From the NCBI GenBank assembly GCA_964603785.1, contig CAZRWD010000009.1, positions 18,082-82,081 on the forward strand: a stretch of 64,000 bases of DNA. Direction: 5' to 3'. The notes below the pieces were generated by a model, which searched no databases, had not been told where the DNA came from, and worked only from the letters and a program-made list of their open reading frames with translations. How positions within the stretch are numbered: the first letter of the stretch is position 1; every line of letters starts with the position of its first letter. The DNA comes from an uncultured bacterium. Lineage in GTDB: Bacteria; Fermentibacterota; Fermentibacteria; Fermentibacterales; Fermentibacteraceae. Position numbers and translations under genes: made by a program. Below, one piece after another: positions 20,470 through 50,846 of the stretch.

Positions 20470-20802
20470 TCAATCCCCCGAAGTGAAGAGGCCCGCCGCG
20501 GCGATACCGGCCAGCACGCCCGCGGCATCCGCAACGAGGTCGATCGGATCGAAGCCCCGTCCGCAGGAGGCGTCGGAAGCCTCCTTCGCCAGCCCGGCCC
20601 CGGCCGCCACGCAGGCCGCGATCGCCCTGGCATCCCCTCCGCCGGCGCCCAGGTGGCTCGCGACACCGGTCGTCAGGCAGGCGAGGTGGGCGGAGAACAG
20701 GACGTGTTCTATCCTGTCCCGCCTCAGGAGGCCGCACCCCGCGGAGGCGAACATAACCGGCAGGAGGGCCGCAGCGGTTGCCCTGCGGATCAGGGGCCGC
20801 AT
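20470..20802 (-). CDS. Small VanZ-like family lipoprotein/membrane protein
   Basis: GC3-biased 110-aa ORF. It has a lipobox-like MRPLIRRATAAALLPVMFASAGC and the motifs DRIEHVLFSAHLACL and GRGFDPIDLVADAAGVLAGIAAAG, resembling VanZ-like conserved blocks. Its stop lies 1-2 nt before the secA TTG. Confidence 0.5.
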   Translation of the reverse strand: MRPLIRRATAAALLPVMFASAGCGLLRRDRIEHVLFSAHLACLTTGVASHLGAGGGDARAIAACVAAGAGLAKEASDASCGRGFDPIDLVADAAGVLAGIAAAGLFTSGD

Positions 20803-20883
20803 TCGCGGAGCCTCCGGCCGACCTCCTCGGGATGCAGGGCCGACCTCACCGGGTGCCCGCCGAAGCCGCGGAGCTTCGACGGA

Positions 20884-21869
20884 TCAGCGGACCCCGGCCA
20901 GGGCGGCCGGGGCAGCGAGAGACCGGCCGCAAGAAGCAACAGGGCGGCGGCCCCCGCGAGCACGAGCCTGGAATTCATCCAACTCCCCCAAGATCGAGTC
21001 CGCGACGGCCCGGAACCCGTCCTCCCCGCGGCCGAGGCCCGAGGCTTCGACGAGCCTCTGCCTTGAGTGCTCCGGCCTGCCCTCCCTCAGATCCTCCAGT
21101 GCGGCACTCACCAGGGCCCAGCCGAGGTTCCGCGCGGCAGCCGCCGAGCGGCGCGCCTGCCAGGCCCGGCGCAGCGCCCAGACCCGCCTCTCGGTGTCTC
21201 CCTCCAGGAGAGCCACGCGGGCATGGGCGTCCCAGTACGACTGGTCGCGACAGCGCTCCCGCCTCAGTGCGAGAAGGTTCTCCATGGCCTCCCCCTGCAG
21301 GCCGGCGTCGCACAGGGCCTCGACGAGCATGGAGCGGTAGAAGCTCTCGCCCGGTCGGAGGGCGACGGCCTGCCGCAGCAGCCCGAGGTGCGCGGAGGAA
21401 TCACCCTCCGAAGCCGCCAGCACAGACAGCCAGCAGGCCGCATCGGCGGCGGTCGAGTCGTCCGGGGAGTTCAGCGCCTCCTCGAGGAAGGCCCTGGAGG
21501 GTTCGTGACCGCAGGCCGCGGCCTGGTACCTCGCCGGCCCCCCGCCCCGCAGGAGGGCGGCCAGCCGGACGACCTCGCCCGTCTTCCCCAGCCTCCTCAG
21601 GGTCTTCATGTACTCGGACAGGAGGAGTTCGCTCTGGGGCCTCATGCGCCAGGCCTCGCAGGCGAACGCGAGCGCGCTGTCCGGAAGGTCCATCTGGTTG
21701 TATGCCCAGGCTATCCGCCACGAGGTCCACGGATCGGGGCTCGACGCGCCGGAGCGCTCCGAGAGGAGGGCCGGTATGGCCTCCTCGATCAGGCCCTCGC
21801 GCACCAGGGAATCGCCGTTCGTGAGGAGAGCGATCGAGAACAGGACTGCTGCGGGTGCGGCCGGCGTCA
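20884..21869 (-). CDS. Hypothetical Ala/Leu/Arg-rich protein (possibly TPR-like); start uncertain
   Basis: Downstream part of table ORF 20884..22260 has good GC3 bias. The upstream 130 aa overlap the small secreted protein gene and look like an artifact. No ATG is nearby; candidates are the CTG/GTG at TPAAPAAVLFSIALLTNGDSLVREG. Confidence 0.4.
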
Positions 21870-22250
21870 GTTCCCCTGCAGCGCTTCGCCCGAGAAGGCC
21901 CCGTTGACGTGGAGCTCCAGGAGGAAGCTGTCGGAGGGCCTCCAGTCGATGCCGATACCGCCGAGGTACATGCCCGCGTCCGGACCCGAGAAGTCGAACA
22001 GGCGGGTGTAGCCGAGGCTCACCTCCGCGCTGACGTCGGGATGGAGGAGGAGCCCCATGGTCCCGAGATAGGTGCCGGTGCTCCAGGATCTCCCGCCGCC
22101 GGAGGTGAACGAGAAGGCCATGGAGCTCCCGAAGGACGGGGTGAGGAGCGGGGAGCCATCGCCTTCGAGCAGGTCGAATCCCGAAGGATCGAGACCGAAT
22201 GCGAGAGCTGCCGAAAGGGGCAGCAGGGACAGCAGGGTTACGAGTTTCAC
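21867..22250 (-). CDS. Small secreted protein (127 aa), possibly a small beta-rich outer-membrane/periplasmic protein
   Basis: GTG start giving MKLVTLLSLLPLSAALAFG (signal peptide), preceded by SD GGAGGTG at a 7-nt spacing. It is the C-terminal part of table ORF 21867..24200, which otherwise runs antisense through the ABC gene. Confidence 0.5.
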   Translation of the reverse strand: MKLVTLLSLLPLSAALAFGLDPSGFDLLEGDGSPLLTPSFGSSMAFSFTSGGGRSWSTGTYLGTMGLLLHPDVSAEVSLGYTRLFDFSGPDAGMYLGGIGIDWRPSDSFLLELHVNGAFSGEALQGN

Positions 22251-22381: not shown

Positions 22382-24193
22382 TCAGACCCGGTCGGGAGGA
22401 CCGCCCGGGCGTCGTCCGGACATGTCCTCGCGGCCAGGCCGCGCGGGAGACACCATGCGTGAGTATAGCCCGCAGGATACGAGCAGTTCCATGTGGGTGC
22501 CGGAGGCCGCCACCGCCCCGCCGTCGATCAGGAGCACCCGGTCTGCGGCCTCGAGCACAGTCGGGTCGTGGCTGACCGCTATGCACATGAGGTCGGCCGA
22601 TATGGAGCGGACGGTGTCGAGGAGCGCGGAGGCCATCGAGTGCTCGAGCGACGAGGTGGGCTCGTCCAGGACGAGGAGGGCCGGCTCGCGCACGAGAGCC
22701 CTGGCGAGGGATACCCGCCGCCTCTGACCCTCGGACAGGAGCACGCCCCGCTCTCCCACGGGCGTATCGGCGCCCAGCGGCAGGGATGCCGTGAATCCCG
22801 CCGAGCCCGAGAGCTCCAGCGCCTTCTCGACAGCCTCGCGGGATGCGTCCGGGCTCCCCGCCAGCACGTTCTCGAGGACGGTGCCCGGCAGGAGGGAGAC
22901 GACCTGGGGGACATAGCCGATCCTCGCGCGGAGGGCGGATGTCCCGTACTCGTCGGCATCCCTGCCGTCGAAGAGGATCCTGCCCCCGGAGGGCCTGTAC
23001 AGCAGCAGCATCAGTCTGAGCAGCGTCGTCTTGCCGGCTCCGCTGGGTCCGGCCATCGCCAGCAGCCCGCCCTTCGAAGCCCTGAAGGAGAGGCCGTCGA
23101 ACAGGGGCGCCCTGCCGGGATACCCGAAGGAGACCCCTTCGAACTCGAGGGTCGAGAAGGCGGGCGCCTCCGTCCGCCCGCCGGGCACGGCCGGTTCCTC
23201 CGGCTCCACCTGCCAGATCTCGTCCAGGCGCTCGAGCGCGGCCGCGGCTCCCTGGAGATCGAGGGAGGACGAGGCGAGGAACCTGGCCGGGCTGAAGACG
23301 GCCGCCAGGTAGGCCTGGAAGGCGATCAGGGTACCGAGGCTCATCGACCCGTCGAGGACCATGCCCCCTCCGGCGAGGAGCACGCCGAGGTGGACGGCAC
23401 CCTGCACGAGTTCGAGGGAGACCGCCGCCAGCGAGCCCTGCCTGGTCCTCTCTATCCCTATCCCCAGGAGCCTGTCGAGCCTCCCTGTGAAGCCGCCGAG
23501 AACCCGCCCCTCCATGCCGTAGGCCTTGACCACCTCCGAGGCGGCGACTCCCGACACGAGGTGTCCGACCGCATCGGCGTTGCTCTCCATCGCCCGGGCG
23601 GCCAGACGTCTCATCCTCCCCGCGAAGAGCGACGCGACGAGGAAGAGGAGGGGTACGGACAGGGTCGCCGCGAGGGCCAGCCTCCACTCCAGGATCATTA
23701 TCAGGACGACGCTCCCCGCGAGGCGCAGGGCGGAGGAGACCATCCCGGGGACCGCGCCGGTGAACACCCATCTGAGCGTTCCGAGGTCCGAGGTGAAGCG
23801 GGTGGCCAGATAGCCCTCCCCGAAGCGGTCGTGGAAGGCCAGGGGGAGCCTCAGCGTCCTCTCGAGGAACCTCTCCTGGAGCTCCAGCCCGATCCTCCTG
23901 TCCAGCCTGGCGGAGGTCATCTGCTGTGCGTAGCCTGCAGCCGTTCCGGCCAGCCTGAGCCCCGCCAGCAGGGCGGCCCCGGCGAGGAGCCAGCCCCGGT
24001 CGCCACCGAGCAGGGCCCTGTCCACGAGCGATCGCGTGACGGCCGGGAGCGCCAGGGTCAGGGCGGTGCCCGCCGCGAGCAGCAGCAGGACGGCCAGCAG
24101 CCCTCTTCCGCCGCTCCTGAACACCGGGACCAGGACCTCCCTGGAGAAGGGCCTGCCGTACAGCGCCCGGAGCCCCGGAGTCCGCTCTCTCAT
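22382..24193 (-). CDS. ABC exporter, fused permease + ATP-binding domains (MsbA/bacteriocin-exporter type, no C39 peptidase domain)
   Basis: Six predicted TM helices, followed by Walker A GPSGAGKTT, signature LSEGQRRRVSLARAL and Walker B LLVLDEPTSSLE. Its ATG overlaps the kinase gene stop (ATGA). Confidence 0.85.
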   Translation of the reverse strand: MRERTPGLRALYGRPFSREVLVPVFRSGGRGLLAVLLLLAAGTALTLALPAVTRSLVDRALLGGDRGWLLAGAALLAGLRLAGTAAGYAQQMTSARLDRRIGLELQERFLERTLRLPLAFHDRFGEGYLATRFTSDLGTLRWVFTGAVPGMVSSALRLAGSVVLIMILEWRLALAATLSVPLLFLVASLFAGRMRRLAARAMESNADAVGHLVSGVAASEVVKAYGMEGRVLGGFTGRLDRLLGIGIERTRQGSLAAVSLELVQGAVHLGVLLAGGGMVLDGSMSLGTLIAFQAYLAAVFSPARFLASSSLDLQGAAAALERLDEIWQVEPEEPAVPGGRTEAPAFSTLEFEGVSFGYPGRAPLFDGLSFRASKGGLLAMAGPSGAGKTTLLRLMLLLYRPSGGRILFDGRDADEYGTSALRARIGYVPQVVSLLPGTVLENVLAGSPDASREAVEKALELSGSAGFTASLPLGADTPVGERGVLLSEGQRRRVSLARALVREPALLVLDEPTSSLEHSMASALLDTVRSISADLMCIAVSHDPTVLEAADRVLLIDGGAVAASGTHMELLVSCGLYSRMVSPARPGREDMSGRRPGGPPDRV

Positions 24194-25107
24194 CCTGCAT
24201 CCCCGAGGAGGCTCCTGACCGCGGACCAGTCCGGACCCTCCAGCGTCAGCCCAGCCGTGGCGCAGGGCACCGAGAGCGCCAGGCGCCTAGCGAGCCCGGC
24301 GGCCTCGATGGCCACCGCCGGGGGCAGGTCGTCGTGACGGCACCAGCATCCTTCGTGGAGCCTGCGGATCGCCTCGCCCGAATCGATCCTGCACAGCGAG
24401 AAGGCGTCGGCCTTCTCGAGGAAGAGGACGGCCCCGAGCGGCGCAGGCCCGCCATCCGGTTCGAGGAGGCTCCAGCCGGTCGGATGGACGAGCGGCCGGT
24501 CTCCCTCGATGCTCACGGCGTTGCAGTCGTCCGACAGGATGCGCCCTCCGTGGCCGGAGAGGACTGCGGTGGTCTTCCCCCCCTCGTCGGGGGCTACCAT
24601 CAGGACTCCCCTTCCGTCCAGGACGACGGCGGAGCTGTGGATCAGCAGGGTCGAGAAGAGCGGCGTGAAGGGCGAGACGATCCCCGGGTTGAGGGTGAGC
24701 ACCGTGTCCAGGTCTTCGGGCACCCTGTCGCCGTTGGTCAGGGCCAGGGAGGCTGCGCGGTCGAAATCCCACAGCGTCAGTGTGTCGGTCCTGCGGTCCG
24801 CGGTCAGCCCGAAGGCGCGGGACGGCTCGGGACCGAACTCCCCCGCCAGGATGCGGGCAGCCTCGCCGCAGCCCGGCCCTCCCGAGGCGACCGCACGGGA
24901 CAGCCTGTCGAACGCGGGGCCGGGGAGCCTGTCGAACACGATCCCCACGGATCCGCGCGGGGCCGATCCGTCGTCGCCGGCTCCCAGGTCCCGGAAGGCG
25001 TACCTGGTCCTTGTCCTGATCGTGATCTGGAAGCTGATGCCCGCAAAAGCGAAACGGAGGCCGCACGGGCCTCCGATCTCGATCCTGCGGTTCCGGGGAG
25101 CGGTCAA
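24190..25107 (-). CDS. HprK-related kinase (HPr kinase/phosphorylase C-terminal-domain-like P-loop protein)
   Basis: LIHSSAVVLDGRGVLMVAPDEGGKTTAVLSG matches the HprK C-terminal-domain pattern LH(A/S)SAV...G.G.L..G.SG.GKST. TTG start lies 7 nt after the precursor B stop. Confidence 0.6.
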   Translation of the reverse strand: MTAPRNRRIEIGGPCGLRFAFAGISFQITIRTRTRYAFRDLGAGDDGSAPRGSVGIVFDRLPGPAFDRLSRAVASGGPGCGEAARILAGEFGPEPSRAFGLTADRRTDTLTLWDFDRAASLALTNGDRVPEDLDTVLTLNPGIVSPFTPLFSTLLIHSSAVVLDGRGVLMVAPDEGGKTTAVLSGHGGRILSDDCNAVSIEGDRPLVHPTGWSLLEPDGGPAPLGAVLFLEKADAFSLCRIDSGEAIRRLHEGCWCRHDDLPPAVAIEAAGLARRLALSVPCATAGLTLEGPDWSAVRSLLGDAG

Positions 25108-25114
25108 GGCCGCT

Positions 25115-25330
25115 TCAGGCCATCGATCCGGTTCTGCAGCCGTAGGCGACCTGGGAGCCGAGAATGCACTCGATGGACCAGTCGGGAGCTATCCCCGTGG
25201 GGCGGCACTGGTTCTGTATGGGCTGGGAACCGGGGAGGCAGATGCCCCTGGATCCGTCGTCCGTTAATCCCCTGTCCCCCGAGAGGTCTATGGAGCCAGG
25301 CGCCTCGTAAAGCGATCTGTAGCCCGGCAT
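25115..25330 (-). CDS. Cys-rich precursor-like peptide B (71 aa), paralog of peptide A
   Basis: ATG with SD GGGGGTGA 2-3 nt upstream. Sequence: MPGYRSLYEAPGSIDLSGDRGLTDDGSRGICLPGSQPIQNQCRPTGIAPDWSIECILGSQVAYGCRTGSMA. Four Cys spaced 12/12/9, conserved with peptide A. GC3 bias is good. Confidence 0.6.
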   Translation of the reverse strand: MPGYRSLYEAPGSIDLSGDRGLTDDGSRGICLPGSQPIQNQCRPTGIAPDWSIECILGSQVAYGCRTGSMA

Positions 25331-25480
25331 TTCACCCCCGTTTCCATGCTCCCGGCTCAACAGGTCCGGGATGGCGCGTGAGCGGCTTCCACACCCTTAG
25401 AATACGGTCCGGGGGGGATGGTTCCCGTCTCCCGGCAAAGGCGAGCATAAGACGAACCCTCCGGAAACACCAGAGGCCGG

Positions 25481-25693
25481 TCAGACCATGGACCCCGCGT
25501 TGCACATGTAGGCCACCTGCCCGCCGACGTTGCAGCGGATCGGGATGTGCGGGGCGTGACCGACCGGCGAGCACTGGTTCTGGACCGGATGGGTCCCCGG
25601 ATTGCAGATGCCCGTCACACTTCCCCCCTGGAGACCGGGACCCCCGGACAGGTCCATGCAGCCGGGGGATTCGTAAAGCCTTCCCTCAGGCAT
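25481..25693 (-). CDS. Cys-rich precursor-like peptide A (70 aa)
   Basis: ATG start. Sequence: MPEGRLYESPGCMDLSGGPGLQGGSVTGICNPGTHPVQNQCSPVGHAPHIPIRCNVGGQVAYMCNAGSMV. It shares with peptide B the motifs LYExPG, DLSG, GICxPG, QNQC, QVAYxCxxGSM. It lies immediately downstream of the second rSAM gene. Confidence 0.65.
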   Translation of the reverse strand: MPEGRLYESPGCMDLSGGPGLQGGSVTGICNPGTHPVQNQCSPVGHAPHIPIRCNVGGQVAYMCNAGSMV

Positions 25694-26828
25694 CCCGCCC
25701 GCCTTCCATGCCTTGCGCCCTGAGCCTGGACGCGGGGAACAGACCGAGCGACTCGGCCATGCCGCAGAAGGCGTTGCCGGAGGATATGCTCCTGCCCGCC
25801 AGATAGTTCAGGGCCACGCAGTCACCCCTGCAGAAGTCCCTGTGGATGCAGCGCGAGCATGTCCCCCCGAGCCCGGACGGGATGGTCTCCCGTATCTCCC
25901 GCAGCACCGGCGCACTCCTCCAGACCTCCTCCAGCCCGTCGCTCCGGATGTCGCCGAAGACCAGGCCCGGAAGCGACACCCCCGCCCCGCATATCGAGAT
26001 CTCTCCCGTGTGGAGTATGCCGAGGACGGTGTGTATGTCGCAACGGGAGCAGCCCTGCCTGAAGAGGTAGCCGGGAGGGAGGAACGCGGGGGGCAGGTGC
26101 AGGATGATCCGGGGGCCGGGCTTCGAGGCCCGCTCCGCCAGCTCGGAGCCCGCCCGGAGGAGGTCGCGGGGCTCGAGGAGCTCCTCCCCGGGGACGTCGC
26201 CCCCCCTTCCGATCGGCTGGATGTGGTTGAACTTGACCGATCCGCAACCCAGGCGCTCCGCCATGTCGATCACGTCCGTGACCTCGCCCGCGTTGCCCTT
26301 GTGGAGAGTGCAGATGAGCTGCGGCCTGATGCCCCGCCCGACGAGCCTTCCGATCCCCTCCATTGCCCGCCCGAAGCAGCCCGGCACCCCCCTGAGGGCC
26401 TCGTGGGTCTCCGCCGTGGCGCCGTCGACGCTCACGGAGATCGACCTGAGCACGCCGCATCCGGCGAGCAGGTCTGCGGTGGATTCGGTGAGGAGGGTCC
26501 CGTTGGTCTCCACCACGAGCTGGATGCCGTGCTCCGCGACCATGTGCACTATCTCGCCGAACGCGGGGTTCAGAAGGGGTTCGCCGCCCGTCAGCTTGAC
26601 GCTTGCCAGGCCCAGGGGCACGGCCTGTTCGACGGCGCTCCGCGCGACTTCCGGAGACATGTGGAGCGACGGGCCGGGGGCGTCTCCCTGGACGGGGCTG
26701 ATCCAGCAGTGCCTGCAGGAGAGGTTGCATGCCCCGGAGACGTACATGTAGAGTGATGCCAGAGGAGGGACTCCGGCACAGGGTCCGGGGGGGGCGGCGG
26801 CTCCGCAGGCCGGCGGGTCACACGGCAT
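25686..26828 (-). CDS. Radical SAM/SPASM-domain protein 2 (peptide-modifying maturase-like)
   Basis: CNLSCRHC (CxxxCxxC) near the N-terminus. C-terminal SPASM cysteines CSRCDIH...ISICGAG...GGTCSRCIHRDFCRGDC. The start is ATG 26828 (strong SD GAGGGGGG) or ATG 26750; the 26 codons between them have weaker GC3 bias. Confidence 0.85.
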   Translation of the reverse strand: MPCDPPACGAAAPPGPCAGVPPLASLYMYVSGACNLSCRHCWISPVQGDAPGPSLHMSPEVARSAVEQAVPLGLASVKLTGGEPLLNPAFGEIVHMVAEHGIQLVVETNGTLLTESTADLLAGCGVLRSISVSVDGATAETHEALRGVPGCFGRAMEGIGRLVGRGIRPQLICTLHKGNAGEVTDVIDMAERLGCGSVKFNHIQPIGRGGDVPGEELLEPRDLLRAGSELAERASKPGPRIILHLPPAFLPPGYLFRQGCSRCDIHTVLGILHTGEISICGAGVSLPGLVFGDIRSDGLEEVWRSAPVLREIRETIPSGLGGTCSRCIHRDFCRGDCVALNYLAGRSISSGNAFCGMAESLGLFPASRLRAQGMEGGRDA

Positions 26829-27918
26829 CGGACACCCCCCTCGAAACGGCGAACCTCCTGTAGCAGTCGACCGGGACGACGGCGTTCATGTCGCCGGTCA
26901 TCTCCAGGGCGAGCCCGGGACAGCTCCCGGTGCACCATGCCGAATAGGCGCACCCGCCGCAGCCCGGCACCTCCTCCATCGGGATATCCGCCCTCGCCCT
27001 CAGCGCCTTCATCACGGGGTGGTCCAGCCAGACTCCGGCGAGCCCGTCGGTGGTGACGTTCCCCATCACCATCCCGTGCAGGATGTGGCAGGGGACGATG
27101 GAGCCGTCGTGCATGACGTCGATCCTGGACCATACGCAGCCGCATCCGGACAGGAACCCGCCGCGGTATCCCGAAGGGGGCGCTCCCGTCCGGGACGAGG
27201 CGGCGATCGAGTCGAAGAACCCCGTCCGGGCGGCGGGGCCGGCCTGGGCCTGTATCCGCCCGGGATACCTCGCCATGAGCTCCCTGAAGTCATCCATGGC
27301 CCTCCAGGACTCCTCGGGCGTGAGGACCCCCCCGGAGGGACCGCAGCCGGAGCCCATGCCGAAGGCCTCGTTGGTCCCGAAGGAGTCGAGGCCCAGGTCC
27401 TCCAGCAGGAACCTGGCGAGGTCCCCCAGGTGGTCGACGTTGTGCCTGCCGATGGTTGCCCGGACCGCCACGGGGAGCCCCGCGGCGCGGGCTCTCTCCA
27501 GACCCGCGACGGCGGCTTCGAACCCTCCAGGGCGGGAGCGCTCGTGGACTTCCGCGCAGTGCCCGTCGATGGAGATCTGCAGATAGTCCATCCTGGTCCT
27601 CCGCCTGCCTTCGGCCAGCCTGCCGGCCATCTCCTCCGTGAGGAGGGTGCCGTTGGAGAGTATGGAGTACCGGAGCCGGTTCTCCACCGCCCTGTCCACC
27701 AGGTCGACGAAGCCGGGCCGCAGCAGGGGCTCCCCGCCCGTGAACAGGACCCTCATGACACCCATCGAGCCGAGCTGGTCGATGAAGGAGAGCCAGTCCC
27801 GGTCGGGGAGGTCGGGCAGCAGGTTCATCTCGTTCGCATAGAAGCAGTAGCCGCACGAAAGGTTGCACCGGCCGGTGACGGCGATGCCCACGGTCCTGGG
27901 GGCTTCCGGCAGCTGCAC
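26818..27918 (-). CDS. Radical SAM/SPASM-domain protein 1 (peptide-modifying maturase-like)
   Basis: GIAVTGRCNLSCGYCFYANE (CxxxCxxC at residues 17-24, so there is no N-terminal RRE domain). SPASM cysteines CGCVWSRIDVMHDGSIVPCH and CGGCAYSAWCTGSC. GTG start lies 1 nt after the PqqD stop. Confidence 0.85.
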   Translation of the reverse strand: MQLPEAPRTVGIAVTGRCNLSCGYCFYANEMNLLPDLPDRDWLSFIDQLGSMGVMRVLFTGGEPLLRPGFVDLVDRAVENRLRYSILSNGTLLTEEMAGRLAEGRRRTRMDYLQISIDGHCAEVHERSRPGGFEAAVAGLERARAAGLPVAVRATIGRHNVDHLGDLARFLLEDLGLDSFGTNEAFGMGSGCGPSGGVLTPEESWRAMDDFRELMARYPGRIQAQAGPAARTGFFDSIAASSRTGAPPSGYRGGFLSGCGCVWSRIDVMHDGSIVPCHILHGMVMGNVTTDGLAGVWLDHPVMKALRARADIPMEEVPGCGGCAYSAWCTGSCPGLALEMTGDMNAVVPVDCYRRFAVSRGVSDAV

Positions 27919-27919
27919 T

Positions 27920-28228
27920 TCAGGCGGGCGGGATCCGGAGGACGAAGCCGGCCTTCTCCATGTCCTCGAGGAAGGAGGCCACGTCGTCCTCCACCCGCCC
28001 GGCCGGGGCTTCCTCGAAGGCCCCGGCCAGCGATGCTGCTATGTCGGAGACCGGCCGGACGCCGTCGAGGCCCGACCACACGAAGAGGCCGGTCGCATTG
28101 AGTATCCTCACCCTGTTGGCATCGGGATCGAACAGGAGCCCGCCCTCCCGGTCCTCCTCCCGGAGGGTCACGACCGGGTTGCGCGAGTAGACAGCTCTCC
28201 CCCGGGGGGTCGATTCATGCTCCGTCAT
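27920..28228 (-). CDS. Standalone PqqD-family peptide chaperone (RiPP recognition element)
   Basis: LLFDPDANRVRILNATGLFVWSGLDGVRPVSDIAASLAGAFEEAPAGRVEDDVASFLEDMEKAGFV is a classic PqqD fold signature. The preferred start is ATG at M8 of the table ORF, with SD GGAGGT upstream. Confidence 0.8.
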   Translation of the reverse strand: MTEHESTPRGRAVYSRNPVVTLREEDREGGLLFDPDANRVRILNATGLFVWSGLDGVRPVSDIAASLAGAFEEAPAGRVEDDVASFLEDMEKAGFVLRIPPA

Positions 28229-29189
28229 CCGGACCTCCGGTTTCCACAACGCATCCGACTGGCGCGGAGTTCCTGCGGCCGGTCCTCTCGATCGCGAGGA
28301 ACACGGCCCCGATCAGAACCGCGAACCACAGGGTGGCGAAGCGCATGAGCAGTGTGACCGCCGCCGCGCCGGCCCCGCCGAGCGGGCCCGACAGGATCCC
28401 GTCCATCGTCAGCTCGGTGAGCCCCAGTCCCCCCGGTATCATGGACACGGCCCCGGCGATGGTCCCCGCGGAATGAGCCAGCAGTGCGGTCCCCGCACCC
28501 GTCCCGAGGCCTATCGATCTCGCCGCGGCCGCTATGACCATCGCCTCGAGACCCCACGACAGGACCCCGAGCGGAACGGAGACGGCGAGGCTGGCGGGTC
28601 CGAGGAGATCGCCGCAGGTATCCCTGAACGAGCACAGGGAATCGCTCCTCCCCCTGAGCGGGCGGATGCGGCAGGCGAGGCCGGCGAGCGCGCCGAAGAT
28701 CCTCCTCGAGGAGAGAACGGCCACGGAGGCGGCCGTCACGAGAGCGCCGGCGGCTATCACGGGCGCCACCGCGGCGCCTCCGGCGAGGGCGGCTCCCGCG
28801 GCCGCGAGCACCGTCATGCTCATGAGGTCGGTGATCCGCTCCGCAACGACGACGGGAGATGTCCGCGAGACGGGGATGCCCTCCCTGTCGCGGAGGAGGC
28901 AGGACTTCAGGAGCTCGCCGAACTTGCCCGGAGAGACGGTCATCGAGAAGCCGGCCAGGAACACCTGCAGGCTCCGTCCGAATCCGGGTCTGATCCCGGC
29001 GCGCCCGAGGAAGTAGTGCCATTTCAGGAACCTGAGGAAGTAGTTCGCCAGGGGCAGGCCGAGGATCGCGGGCAGCCACCGGGGGTCGAACGATTCGAGG
29101 GCCGCGCCTGTGCCGCGCATGTCGCCCGCCAGGACCAGGACCGAGTAGACGACGATCGCCAGGGCCGCGGTCAGGAGCAGCTTCTTCAA
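28218..29189 (-). CDS. UPF0104 / lysylphosphatidylglycerol-synthase-TM-like ('flippase-like') integral membrane protein
   Basis: C-terminal 324 aa of table ORF 28215..30152 (the upstream part is antisense to the TPR gene). Motifs DPRWLPAILGLPLANYFLRFLKWHYFL...GKFGE, with multiple TM helices. The putative TTG start overlaps the upstream TGA (TTGA). Confidence 0.65.
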
Positions 29190-49164: not shown

Positions 49165-50118
49165 CTACTGGCCCCCCTCGAGGAGCGAGGCTATCCCCAT
49201 GGCCTCCAGCGCGAGCTTGCTGTGCTTGTTCGAGCTCAGGAACAGCTTGTTGCACGCGCCGGGCGACGGATGCTTCCTGCACATCGTGCGCACGATGTTC
49301 GCGAAGACCGAGGGGATCTTCTCCGTCTCGGCCGGGAGGGCCTCCAGGAAGAGCCCGTCCTCCACGTCGTAGGAGAAGCTGGAGAGGCACTCCTCCTTCT
49401 GCTTCAGGGTCTTGAAGACCGTCGAGGCGATGTTCGCGCACTCGGGCCAGGTCGGCCTGGCCGCCTCCAGCCAGTTGTTGAACGAGGATACCAGCAGCTG
49501 CGCCTCGGATATCCCTACCCCGGCGGGCTCGGCGGTCTGCCCCGGGTATAGGTCCGCGACGGCCTTCGGGGGCAGCTGCTCGGTCAGATAGGTCAGGATG
49601 GCCTTGCCCTTGAGGATGGATCCCGGGCCGAAGGCCATCTGCAGCTTCCCCTTCTCGACCGGGACCAGGGTGGACTGCCCGAGCGCCCTTATCCTCAGCA
49701 GGCCGGACTCCTCCTTTCGCCTGAGGGCCCGGAGGACGTCCATGATGTCTCCCGTGTCGTTGTCGAGGTCCTGGAGGACGGGCTCCTCGGTGCAGCAACG
49801 CAGGAGATACGGCAGGGAGTTGTGCTCCATGAACCTGTAGGTGAGTGTCAGCTCCCTCTTGTCCTTGCGGAGCCAGTTCATGAAGGCGTTCACGCTGGGC
49901 CCGGAGTAGCCGATGATCCTGTAGGGCCTGCCGCCGCGGAGGATCAGGTAGGCCTGCGGTATGTCCTCGGAATCGATCTGCCAGTAGGCGTCCCCGGCGA
50001 ACCTCCGGTCCTCGAGGGAGCCCTTCACGAGCTCGTCGAGGTTGATGAACTGGAGGGGCACCTTCTCGAAGAACGTCCGGCTGAACGGCAGGGCGTCCTT
50101 GACGACGATGCCGCTCAA
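49165..50118 (-). CDS. Hypothetical Lys/Phe-rich protein (317 aa), compositionally atypical for this genome
   Basis: TTG start overlaps the lepB TGA (TTGA), giving MSGIVVKDALPFSRTFFEKVPLQFINLDELVKG.... I recognise no family with confidence; there is a faint resemblance to DUF4388-type N-terminal domains. The upstream 94 aa of the table ORF are frame noise. Confidence 0.45.
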   Translation of the reverse strand: MSGIVVKDALPFSRTFFEKVPLQFINLDELVKGSLEDRRFAGDAYWQIDSEDIPQAYLILRGGRPYRIIGYSGPSVNAFMNWLRKDKRELTLTYRFMEHNSLPYLLRCCTEEPVLQDLDNDTGDIMDVLRALRRKEESGLLRIRALGQSTLVPVEKGKLQMAFGPGSILKGKAILTYLTEQLPPKAVADLYPGQTAEPAGVGISEAQLLVSSFNNWLEAARPTWPECANIASTVFKTLKQKEECLSSFSYDVEDGLFLEALPAETEKIPSVFANIVRTMCRKHPSPGACNKLFLSSNKHSKLALEAMGIASLLEGGQ

Positions 50119-50846
50119 CGGGCTATCCTCGCGATCCTGTCGAGCCTGGGAAGCCCGTGGCCGGGCGCCCACGACCAGTAGATGAACAGCATCTCGCCCT
50201 TGACCAGATCGACGTCGAGCGGGCCCCACACGCGGCTGTCGCTCGAATGGTCCCTGTTGTCGCCCATCATGAAGACGTGGTGCGGAGGGACGACGTAGGC
50301 GACCTCGCCGCCCGGCGTGAGGAAGCAGCCGGCCGCGATCTCGTCGAAGGCCAGGTCGGCGACCCGGTTCCGCAGCTGGGGCAGGCAGCCCGGCCAGCAC
50401 TCGTCGAGTATGCCGGGGGCGAGCCTGTCCTGGTCGGCGACCGCCCAGGGAGAGGGCTCGCCGTTCACCAGCAGGGTGTCGTTCCTCACCATCACGGTGT
50501 CACCGCCGACCGCAACCACGCGCTTTATGAAGTCCCTCTCCAGGTCGGCGGGATAGCGGAAGACGCATATCTCGCCGGGCTGCACGGTGTCCAGCGCGGG
50601 CATGAGCAGGCCGTGCCCGCCGCCGCGGAACGAGTGCAGGAGCGGCTCGACCCGGTCGGTCCACGGGATCCTCTGGCCATGTGCGGCCTTCAGGAGGAGC
50701 AGGTGGTCGCCTATGAGCAGGGTGCCCTCCATGCTCGGGGAGGGTATCCGGAAGCTCTCGACCACGTATGGCCTCAGGAAGCCGAAGAAGATGACCAGAG
50801 CCAGGGCAAGCTGCACGAACCAGTCGAGAATCCTCGCCCTCGACAA
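50115..50846 (-). CDS. lepB: Signal peptidase I
   Basis: TM anchor, SPSMEGTL (box B Ser), KRVVAVGGDTV, GDNRDHSSDSRVWG (box E). Confidence 0.85.
   Translation of the reverse strand: MSRARILDWFVQLALALVIFFGFLRPYVVESFRIPSPSMEGTLLIGDHLLLLKAAHGQRIPWTDRVEPLLHSFRGGGHGLLMPALDTVQPGEICVFRYPADLERDFIKRVVAVGGDTVMVRNDTLLVNGEPSPWAVADQDRLAPGILDECWPGCLPQLRNRVADLAFDEIAAGCFLTPGGEVAYVVPPHHVFMMGDNRDHSSDSRVWGPLDVDLVKGEMLFIYWSWAPGHGLPRLDRIARIAR

Follow-up and report, generated by a model that had tools for sequence, protein, structure and literature searches.

A probable, divergent SynChlorMet-type peptide-modification operon with one discrete PqqD-family chaperone and two radical SAM/SPASM enzymes in an uncultured Fermentibacteraceae bacterium

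The window analysed in this work is a 64-kb stretch (64,000 nucleotides) of contig CAZRWD010000009.1 from an uncultured member of the Fermentibacteraceae. Its minus strand carries a compact set of seven genes that encode a discrete PqqD-family peptide chaperone, two radical S-adenosylmethionine (SAM) enzymes with SPASM domains (rSAM1 and rSAM2), two short Cys-rich precursor peptides, a P-loop protein resembling HPr kinase/phosphorylase and an ABC exporter. The window has a G+C content of ~69% throughout and contains many long spurious open reading frames (ORFs); gene junctions and coordinates were checked directly on the sequence.

The cassette begins with the 102-aa PqqD-family protein (27920..28228, minus strand, as for all genes of the cassette), a discrete recognition element (RRE) of the kind that serves peptides made by ribosomes and modified post-translationally (RiPPs). 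Its ATG lies at 28228, with a GGAGG at 28238-28234, 5 nt upstream, and its TGA occupies 27922-27920. The GTG start of rSAM1 (26818..27918, 366 aa) is found at 27918, exactly 1 nt after this stop codon, which confirms the 1-nt gap between the two genes that had been proposed in an earlier reading made from the letters of this DNA (the sequence-only reading). The ATG of rSAM2 (25686..26828, 380 aa) at 26828 lies inside the end of rSAM1, giving an overlap of 11 nt, and the ATG of precursor 1 (25481..25693, 70 aa) overlaps the rSAM2 stop by 8 nt. Precursor 2 (25115..25330, 71 aa) starts at an in-frame ATG at 25330 after a purine-rich stretch with GGGGG; four independent metagenome contigs carry it as a called gene of 71 aa. 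The gene of the P-loop protein (24190..25107, 305 aa) follows, and its stop is overlapped in an ATGA by the start of the 603-aa exporter (22382..24193). The exporter combines permease and ATPase (Pfam ABC_membrane, residues 33-302; ABC_tran, residues 366-514) without a C39 peptidase domain, and its top NCBIfam match is MsbA_rel. Because these genes overlap or nearly abut, co-expression of the cassette is to be expected. At least four sequencing runs yielded contigs with the same intact operon.

The gene content corresponds to that of the SynChlorMet (SCM) cassette, which is defined in NCBIfam/TIGRFAMs by the five models TIGR04248 (ScmD), TIGR04249 (ScmC), TIGR04250 (ScmE), TIGR04251 (ScmF) and TIGR04252 (ScmA). 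The best match of rSAM1 is ScmE (303.6 bits, E 1.6e-90; next family 125 bits) and that of rSAM2 is ScmF (333.4 bits, E 1.9e-99; next family 145 bits), E-values that do not arise from chance ORFs. ScmD is the best NCBIfam match of the PqqD-family protein (51.5 bits, E 8.8e-14). For comparison, these models give 537-630 bits for canonical ScmE and ScmF proteins encoded in a Chlorobiaceae genome, in a deltaproteobacterium and in Methanospirillum (602.5 bits for the ScmE of locus L036), and a canonical ScmD (L046) scores 135.3 bits on TIGR04248. On the ScmE and ScmF models, the range is 300-377 bits for the window proteins and those of the syntenic sister locus L008 and of the relative L005; the ScmF values of this clade in that comparison are 351-377 bits. 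Because all scores fall under the curated cut-offs, we place the window in a divergent clade that is sister to the curated families. Homologues of rSAM2 at 45-50% identity are named ScmF by JGI. A clustered PqqD, two distinct SPASM radical SAM paralogues, a small precursor and ScmC, which make up the SynChlorMet architecture, are all present, and the five component types occur in the usual order D-E-F-A-C, here as D-E-F-A-A-C followed by the ABC exporter, with ScmD, ScmE and ScmF as top matches by a wide margin. The window differs from the curated SynChlorMet cassette in its two precursors, the proline-rich modules of these peptides with only four cysteines, and the lack of a signal-peptidase-like gene and a nucleotidyltransferase. 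As an architecture, the combination of PqqD with twin radical SAM enzymes is already catalogued in databases and is not new.

A scan of species-representative genomes, together with contig look-ups, yielded 48 non-redundant orthologous loci, many of them on truncated contigs. The loci span Verrucomicrobiota, Fermentibacteraceae, Acidobacteriota, Desulfobacterales, Syntrophales, Chloroflexi and Aminicenantes, and occur also in Nitrospirae, Chlorobiaceae, Brocadiaceae, Campylobacterota, Methanospirillum and Methanoregulaceae. Their commonest gene order is ScmD-ScmE-ScmF-precursor-ScmC, then in many cases a small peptidase-like gene, and then the ABC exporter. ScmE was found in 42 of the 48 loci and ScmC in 39. 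ScmD was found in 38, usually immediately beside ScmE or ScmF, so that the adjacency of PqqD and radical SAM genes recurs in related genomes, in support of the sequence-only reading. The peptidase-like gene was found in 31 loci, the ABC exporter in 27 and an NTP_transf_5 nucleotidyltransferase in ~22. Among these loci are duplicated or expanded cassettes (L019, L022, L042 and L069): L022 has two ScmC genes and three precursors, L042 has a second ScmE-ScmF pair, and L069 has two near-identical precursors.

The small gene after ScmC in the relatives encodes a protein of ~200 aa whose best match is the archaeal-type signal peptidase I model TIGR02228 (E 1e-10 to 1e-14), with a weak match to SipW (examples at L005:10273-10887, L008:10772-11371 and L036:9386-9976). 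Nowhere in the 64-kb window is there such a gene; both syntenic sisters, L008 and L089 (GCA_030373045.1), have it. No NTP_transf_5 homologue was found anywhere in the window, nor in the two sister loci. A dedicated leader peptidase encoded elsewhere in the window was also considered and rejected; the sole S26 peptidase of the window is an ordinary LepB-type signal peptidase I (50115-50846, minus strand) with the motifs SPSMEGTL and GDNRDHSSDSR, which gave the only match, a weak one, when the window was searched for the peptidase of the relatives. It is possible that this LepB acts as a leader peptidase in trans.

Sactisynthases such as SkfB and CteB generally carry fused N-terminal RREs. A fused RRE would need ~85-100 aa N-terminal of the radical SAM motif, and neither rSAM1 nor rSAM2 has one. 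The CxxxCxxC motif is formed by C18/C22/C25 in rSAM1 and by C34/C38/C41 in rSAM2; its proposed location within the first ~25 residues of both proteins holds for the former and fails for the latter. When rSAM1 is aligned to maturases of solved structure, its residues 9-15 fall opposite residue 110 in SkfB, 101 in CteB and 134 in SuiB, each of which bears an N-terminal RRE, and the RRE-free PqqE aligns from its own residue 24-26. An AlphaFold model of rSAM2, built from an alignment of 20 sequences (pLDDT 86.4, pTM 0.87), has residues 1-15 disordered and the first core strand at residue 25, and a hidden N-terminal RRE in this protein was ruled out on this basis. The top Foldseek neighbours of the model are SkfB, SuiB, PqqE, anSME, BlsE and CteB. 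Against the RRE-bearing targets the target-normalised TM-scores are lower than the query-normalised ones, as expected if the RRE of the target is left unmatched. Motif position, alignment offsets, model and Foldseek comparison all bear out the absence of a fused RRE that the sequence-only reading had claimed. The same reading had left the start of rSAM2 open between 26828 and 26750. The internal ATG in fact lies at 26747 and encodes Met28. Since P21, L23 and Y27, which are invariant in 20 homologues, all precede Met28, and since the interval from one ATG to the other offers no further in-frame start, translation is assigned to begin at 26828.

Both enzymes match the Radical_SAM (PF04055; 92.7 bits for rSAM1 and 88.9 bits for rSAM2) and SPASM (PF13186; 31.6 and 27.1 bits) families above the Pfam thresholds. 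The SPASM cysteines of ScmE (259, 277, 320, 323, 329, 333 and 352) and its C18/C22/C25 triad are 100% kept in 44 ScmE sequences; those of ScmF (263, 280, 324, 327, 333, 337 and 355) and its C34/C38/C41 triad are kept at or near 100% in 45 ScmF sequences. Because the radical SAM triad and the full SPASM set of seven cysteines are retained to this degree, both ScmE and ScmF are probably active three-cluster enzymes. A recent tandem duplication of the two genes can be rejected, in agreement with the earlier claim, considering that rSAM1 and rSAM2 are 31% identical and that ScmE and ScmF split cleanly. The 44 ScmE and 45 ScmF sequences form two perfectly separated clusters, with a minimum identity of 33-35% within each type and a maximum of 30.9% between types. 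Judged by these comparisons, ScmE and ScmF are ancient paralogues. It is noted that at L032:6585-8161 (with 7 kb covered on either side) and L038:108-3379 (within a contig whose edge limits the view), ScmD and ScmF occur without a detectable ScmE. These two loci hint that the central enzyme may be ScmF, with ScmE as an addition, the contig edge limiting what L038 can contribute.

The cassette had been described as a duplicated version of the PqqD/PqqE arrangement from PQQ biosynthesis. The resemblance is real insofar as an RRE-less SPASM enzyme is paired with a discrete PqqD and PqqE ranks with the nearest proteins of solved structure. However, the description as a local duplication does not hold, ScmE and ScmF being ancient paralogues. 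On the PqqE model TIGR02109, rSAM1 and rSAM2 reach only 90.5 and 73.1 bits against a cut-off of 381, and the PqqD-family protein reaches 29.8 bits on the PqqD model TIGR03859 against 46. In addition, homologues of pqqA, pqqB and pqqC are absent nearby, the SCM substrate is Cys-rich and modular, and its product is proposed to be exported and not to be a cofactor. Scores on the maturase models StsB, PapB and SkfB are low, with 58-109 bits against cut-offs of 300-625.

The discrete chaperone itself is a clear PqqD-family protein (PF05402, 53.2 bits against a cut-off of 23.4). Its PDB matches include a "PqqD family protein" (9X8Z_B, the closest, E 0.0026) and PqqD (3G2B). Leader binding by this ScmD may be proposed by analogy, the basis being the conserved YxxP motif of the precursors together with the precedent of lasso peptides and linear polyphosphorylated peptides (LPPs), in which YxxP is the leader motif targeted by PqqD-type RREs (PMC13381572).

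The two precursor peptides are paralogous, with 56% identity. A hidden Markov model (HMM) of 39 precursors taken from other genomes only recovers both of them as ScmA-like peptides (precursor 1, 29.8 bits, E 3e-7; precursor 2, 31.0 bits, E 1.2e-7). Iterated HMM searching of the fetched loci found a homologous ORF of 60-110 aa in ~34 loci, mostly just 3' of ScmF; among the loci with a detected precursor there is one in 31, two in 2 and three in 1. The family has a Y-x-x-P leader motif with invariant Tyr and Pro and a core of tandem modules of ~10 residues, each starting with C-x-x-G. Of 176 modules, 159 have Gly at +3; cysteines are most often spaced by 10 residues, and Y7, P10, C30, G33, C54, G57, C64 and G67 are invariant. 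In the window precursors, the YxxP leader is followed by four C-x-x-G modules; their closest relatives have one more. A profile of the two peptides searched against 1.84 billion representative proteins retrieved, besides these, only about nine short proteins belonging to this subtype. An extra leader cysteine, Cys12 (25658-25660, in PGCMDLSG), occurs in precursor 1; the residue is Ser in precursor 2 and hydrophobic in the relatives.

Paeninodin-type tailoring kinases are HPr-kinase-like, and the 305-aa protein encoded after the precursors resembles them. It has a weak precomputed Pfam match to ScmC (PF27840) and scores 154 bits (E 1e-46) on a local ScmC HMM that has the window protein among its seeds. 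A profile of 26 ScmC proteins matches HPr kinase/phosphorylase best (1JB1/2QMH, E 2.7e-6), over the region of the invariant His, the P-loop G-K-(S/T) and the Asp-Asp pair, and NCBIfam HprK_rel_A matches the window protein with E 8e-4. H157, G177, K178 and D194 are invariant among the ScmC proteins, and T180 and D193 nearly so. An additional N-terminal region of ~150 aa is poorly conserved. A word-indexed homologue search with ScmC returned the window protein alone. Because the single-sequence AlphaFold model is unusable (pLDDT 31.9), the HprK assignment rests on the profile matches and the conserved residues. The paeninodin-type kinases PadeK, ThcoK and PsmK are precursor-directed and are encoded beside a PqqD-type RRE and a nucleotidyltransferase. 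Phosphorylation of RiPP precursors by kinases has precedents in paeninodin (PMC9266682) and, with HprK-like enzymes, in LPP biosynthesis (PMC13381572). ScmC keeps the His, P-loop Lys-Thr and Asp-Asp signature of these enzymes. It differs by its N-terminal extension, and the cassette differs from paeninodin clusters in having neither a lasso cyclase nor a B2 peptidase. By this analogy, ScmC would probably phosphorylate Ser or Thr of the precursor.

Considering these features together, we think it probable that the cassette is an intact, divergent SynChlorMet-type RiPP operon for a modified, Cys-rich and exported peptide, with both radical SAM enzymes acting on the same peptide. In the proposed pathway, ScmD would bind the conserved Y-x-x-P leader of each precursor and present the core of four ~10-residue C-x-x-G modules to ScmE and ScmF. 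Each of these enzymes, with its radical SAM cluster and two auxiliary clusters, would most likely set its own type or set of Cys-derived crosslinks, thioether or other radical-derived ones. A further modification, probably Ser/Thr phosphorylation, would then be added by the HPr-kinase-like ScmC, and the product would be exported by the MsbA-like ABC transporter. For SPASM enzymes with Cys-rich core substrates, a thioether linkage is the first guess to make, and the present data do not discriminate between linkage types.

Several points weigh against this interpretation. Every component scores under its NCBI equivalog cut-off (303.6 and 333.4 bits against 400 for the two radical SAM enzymes, 51.5 bits against 100 for ScmD), and because of these scores functional equivalence with the canonical cassettes is not assured. 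The NCBIfam ScmC and ScmA models match nothing among the window proteins. For TIGR04249 (cut-off 125), the window ScmC-like protein is unmatched even at E up to 10, and the protein of a sister genome gives 17.6 bits; for TIGR04252 (cut-off 35), the peptide of a relative gives 24.8 bits. The residue two positions past the leader Pro is Cys or Ser in the window peptides, and a hydrophobic one is expected there from the YxxPx[LVI] consensus. Leader removal is unexplained, the window being without the signal-peptidase-like gene. The chemistry of the cassette is a guess by analogy. Finally, neither an experimental study of a SynChlorMet cassette nor a characterised product was found in the searchable literature, and the cassette is unmentioned in the surveys of radical SAM RiPPs that we examined; as far as can be told, SynChlorMet is an in-silico definition only.

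The division of labour between the two enzymes deserves further consideration. In thuricin CD biosynthesis, the SPASM enzymes TrnC and TrnD are tightly bound in one complex and cooperate on two precursors, with ABC export (PMC12093266). ScmE and ScmF could likewise be an obligate heterocomplex that makes one kind of crosslink and strictly needs only one radical SAM activity. The window also pairs two enzymes with two precursors and an ABC exporter, the 11-nt overlap of the ScmE and ScmF genes suggests stoichiometric co-translation, and the pair is co-inherited in 42 of the 48 loci. However, a partner serving as a mere scaffold would not be expected to keep all radical SAM and SPASM cysteines at or near 100%, as both types do; ScmF stands with ScmD but without detectable ScmE at L032, and at L038 within its contig; and most loci have a single precursor and no two-component pair. 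The two systems also differ in that no close sequence relationship between them was found and that ScmE and ScmF depend on a discrete RRE. We regard a TrnC/TrnD-like heterocomplex as rather unlikely. An assignment of one enzyme to each precursor, through one chaperone, is far less plausible still. It would suit the two precursor paralogues that lie beside two enzymes in the window and in each of its two syntenic sisters, but both ScmE and ScmF are kept although 31 loci have one precursor, and the shared leader and module architecture of the window peptides leaves little basis for discrimination. Because most loci with a precursor have only one, the pair of enzymes is not explained by a pair of substrates. 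Of the two possibilities that the sequence-only reading had offered, two peptide specificities are disfavoured on these grounds, and two distinct crosslinks installed through a shared chaperone are the most economical reading.

It could also be argued that the window holds a decaying remnant, which has lost its peptidase and nucleotidyltransferase and yields no mature product. The signal-peptidase-like gene, retained in 31 of the 48 loci including L008 and L089, is indeed missing, as is the nucleotidyltransferase of ~22 loci, and the window precursors are one Cys module short of their closest relatives. Yet all seven genes are full-length, tightly coupled and keep their catalytic residues, both sister genomes are without the nucleotidyltransferase as well, and the leader could be cleaved by the LepB at 50115-50846 or by another protease. 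We consider decay very improbable, and return to the reading of an intact operon whose two enzymes act on one peptide.

The accessory genes allow a comparison with the LPP clusters of Bacillota, which encode a stand-alone RRE, a kinase of the HprK-like type, a peptidase resembling archaeal-type signal peptidase I, a nucleotidyltransferase and an MsbA-like exporter (Nat Commun 2026, PMC13381572). There, the RRE binds the YxxP leader and presents the cleavage site, and the peptidase needs the RRE for cleavage; radical SAM or SPASM enzymes are not mentioned in that paper, and LPPs are described as restricted to Bacillota (PMC13381572). The window shares the discrete RRE, the HprK-like kinase, the MsbA-like exporter and the YxxP leader, matched at the protein-family level only. 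It differs in lacking the peptidase and the nucleotidyltransferase, and LPP clusters differ in turn by having no radical SAM enzymes and linear products. In the relatives, the peptidase and nucleotidyltransferase complete, with ScmC, ScmD and the ABC exporter, the core LPP gene set. On these protein-family matches, SCM cassettes resemble an LPP chassis to which two radical SAM enzymes have been added. Because the gene set of the relatives parallels that of LPP clusters, in which cleavage by the peptidase depends on the RRE, ScmD probably serves also ScmC and, where encoded, the leader peptidase, beyond ScmE and ScmF. A broader proposal, which we offer tentatively and consider less likely than not, is that SynChlorMet represents an LPP-like chassis combined with a radical SAM/SPASM pair, in which one PqqD-type RRE would serve up to four enzyme classes on a single Cys-module peptide and the products, both crosslinked and phosphorylated, would form a RiPP class not yet described. 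The window would then be a stripped-down version that matures its peptides without a dedicated peptidase. If true, this chassis would reach well beyond Bacillota, across anaerobic phyla and methanogens.

The window does not hold a new kind of system; its value is as a compact entry, with reduced gene content, to an uncharacterised and widespread RiPP cassette. The cassette is distributed widely among uncultured anaerobes and methanogens, no experimental study of it was found, and reconstitution would be convenient with this compact version, which has seven genes and short precursors of four modules. The predictions are that both enzymes are active on one peptide, that the leader contacts involve Y7 and P10, and that the reaction sites lie in the C-x-x-G modules. 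The accessory genes tie the cassette to LPP and paeninodin tailoring, and suggest one RRE for the radical SAM enzymes, the kinase and the leader peptidase.

Two terminator-like hairpins are found on the minus strand within the operon. One (25458..25476; 7-bp stem and T-rich tail) lies directly 3' of the precursor 1 stop and is a possible attenuator. The other, the stronger of the two, lies 40 nt past the precursor 2 stop within the first ScmC codons (25055..25075; 8-bp stem with 7 G-C pairs, followed by TTTCGCTTTT) and falls inside the codons for the conserved ScmC N-terminal motif LRFAFAGISF. It should be mentioned that these hairpins are consensus matches only, six being present in 13 kb against 2.9 ± 1.7 expected. 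They could control the ratio of precursor to enzyme transcript. The promoter scan found no sigma-70-like promoter, Rfam gave zero matches within the window, the inter-precursor spacer has no folding advantage over shuffled sequence (z = 0.36), and base composition shows no island signature.

Upstream, the PqqD start overlaps by 14 nt, in a different frame, a flippase-like LPG_synthase_TM gene (28215..29189, minus strand; PF03706, 150 bits). Membership of this gene in the cassette was considered and rejected; it is a conserved stand-alone gene of Fermentibacteria, and CRISPR-Cas takes the place of the cassette in one relative. Its nearest named homologues belong to Candidatus Fermentibacterota, which agrees with the lineage given for the window. 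The sisters L008 and L089 share with the window the order type II secretion system (T2SS) ATPase, PBP1, TPR protein, flippase-like gene and SCM cassette, with SecA further on. At L090:9001-18670, the same upstream synteny (T2SS ATPase, PBP1, TPR protein, flippase-like gene) leads into a type I-E CRISPR-Cas system and not into the cassette. Because L090 has CRISPR-Cas at this position, the insertion point of the cassette is seen as variable, behaving like an island, and the flippase-like gene counts as context and not as cargo. A PqqD fusion was seen in 1 of 120 flippase-like homologues, the Fermentibacteria homologues being otherwise stand-alone. This is at L008:5584-6897 (P0121), where the flippase-like and PqqD genes form one ORF of 437 aa with both Pfam domains; the two genes are separate in L089. 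The L008 ORF could reflect a single fusion event or a frameshift in the assembly.

On the other side of the cassette, between the ABC exporter and SecA (20470-22121, minus strand), lie three small genes, with products of 84 aa, 306 aa (TPR-like) and 110 aa. The 110-aa product has an N-terminus resembling that of lipoproteins and matches VanZ very weakly. Counterparts of similar size to these three genes occur at the same position in L008 and L089.

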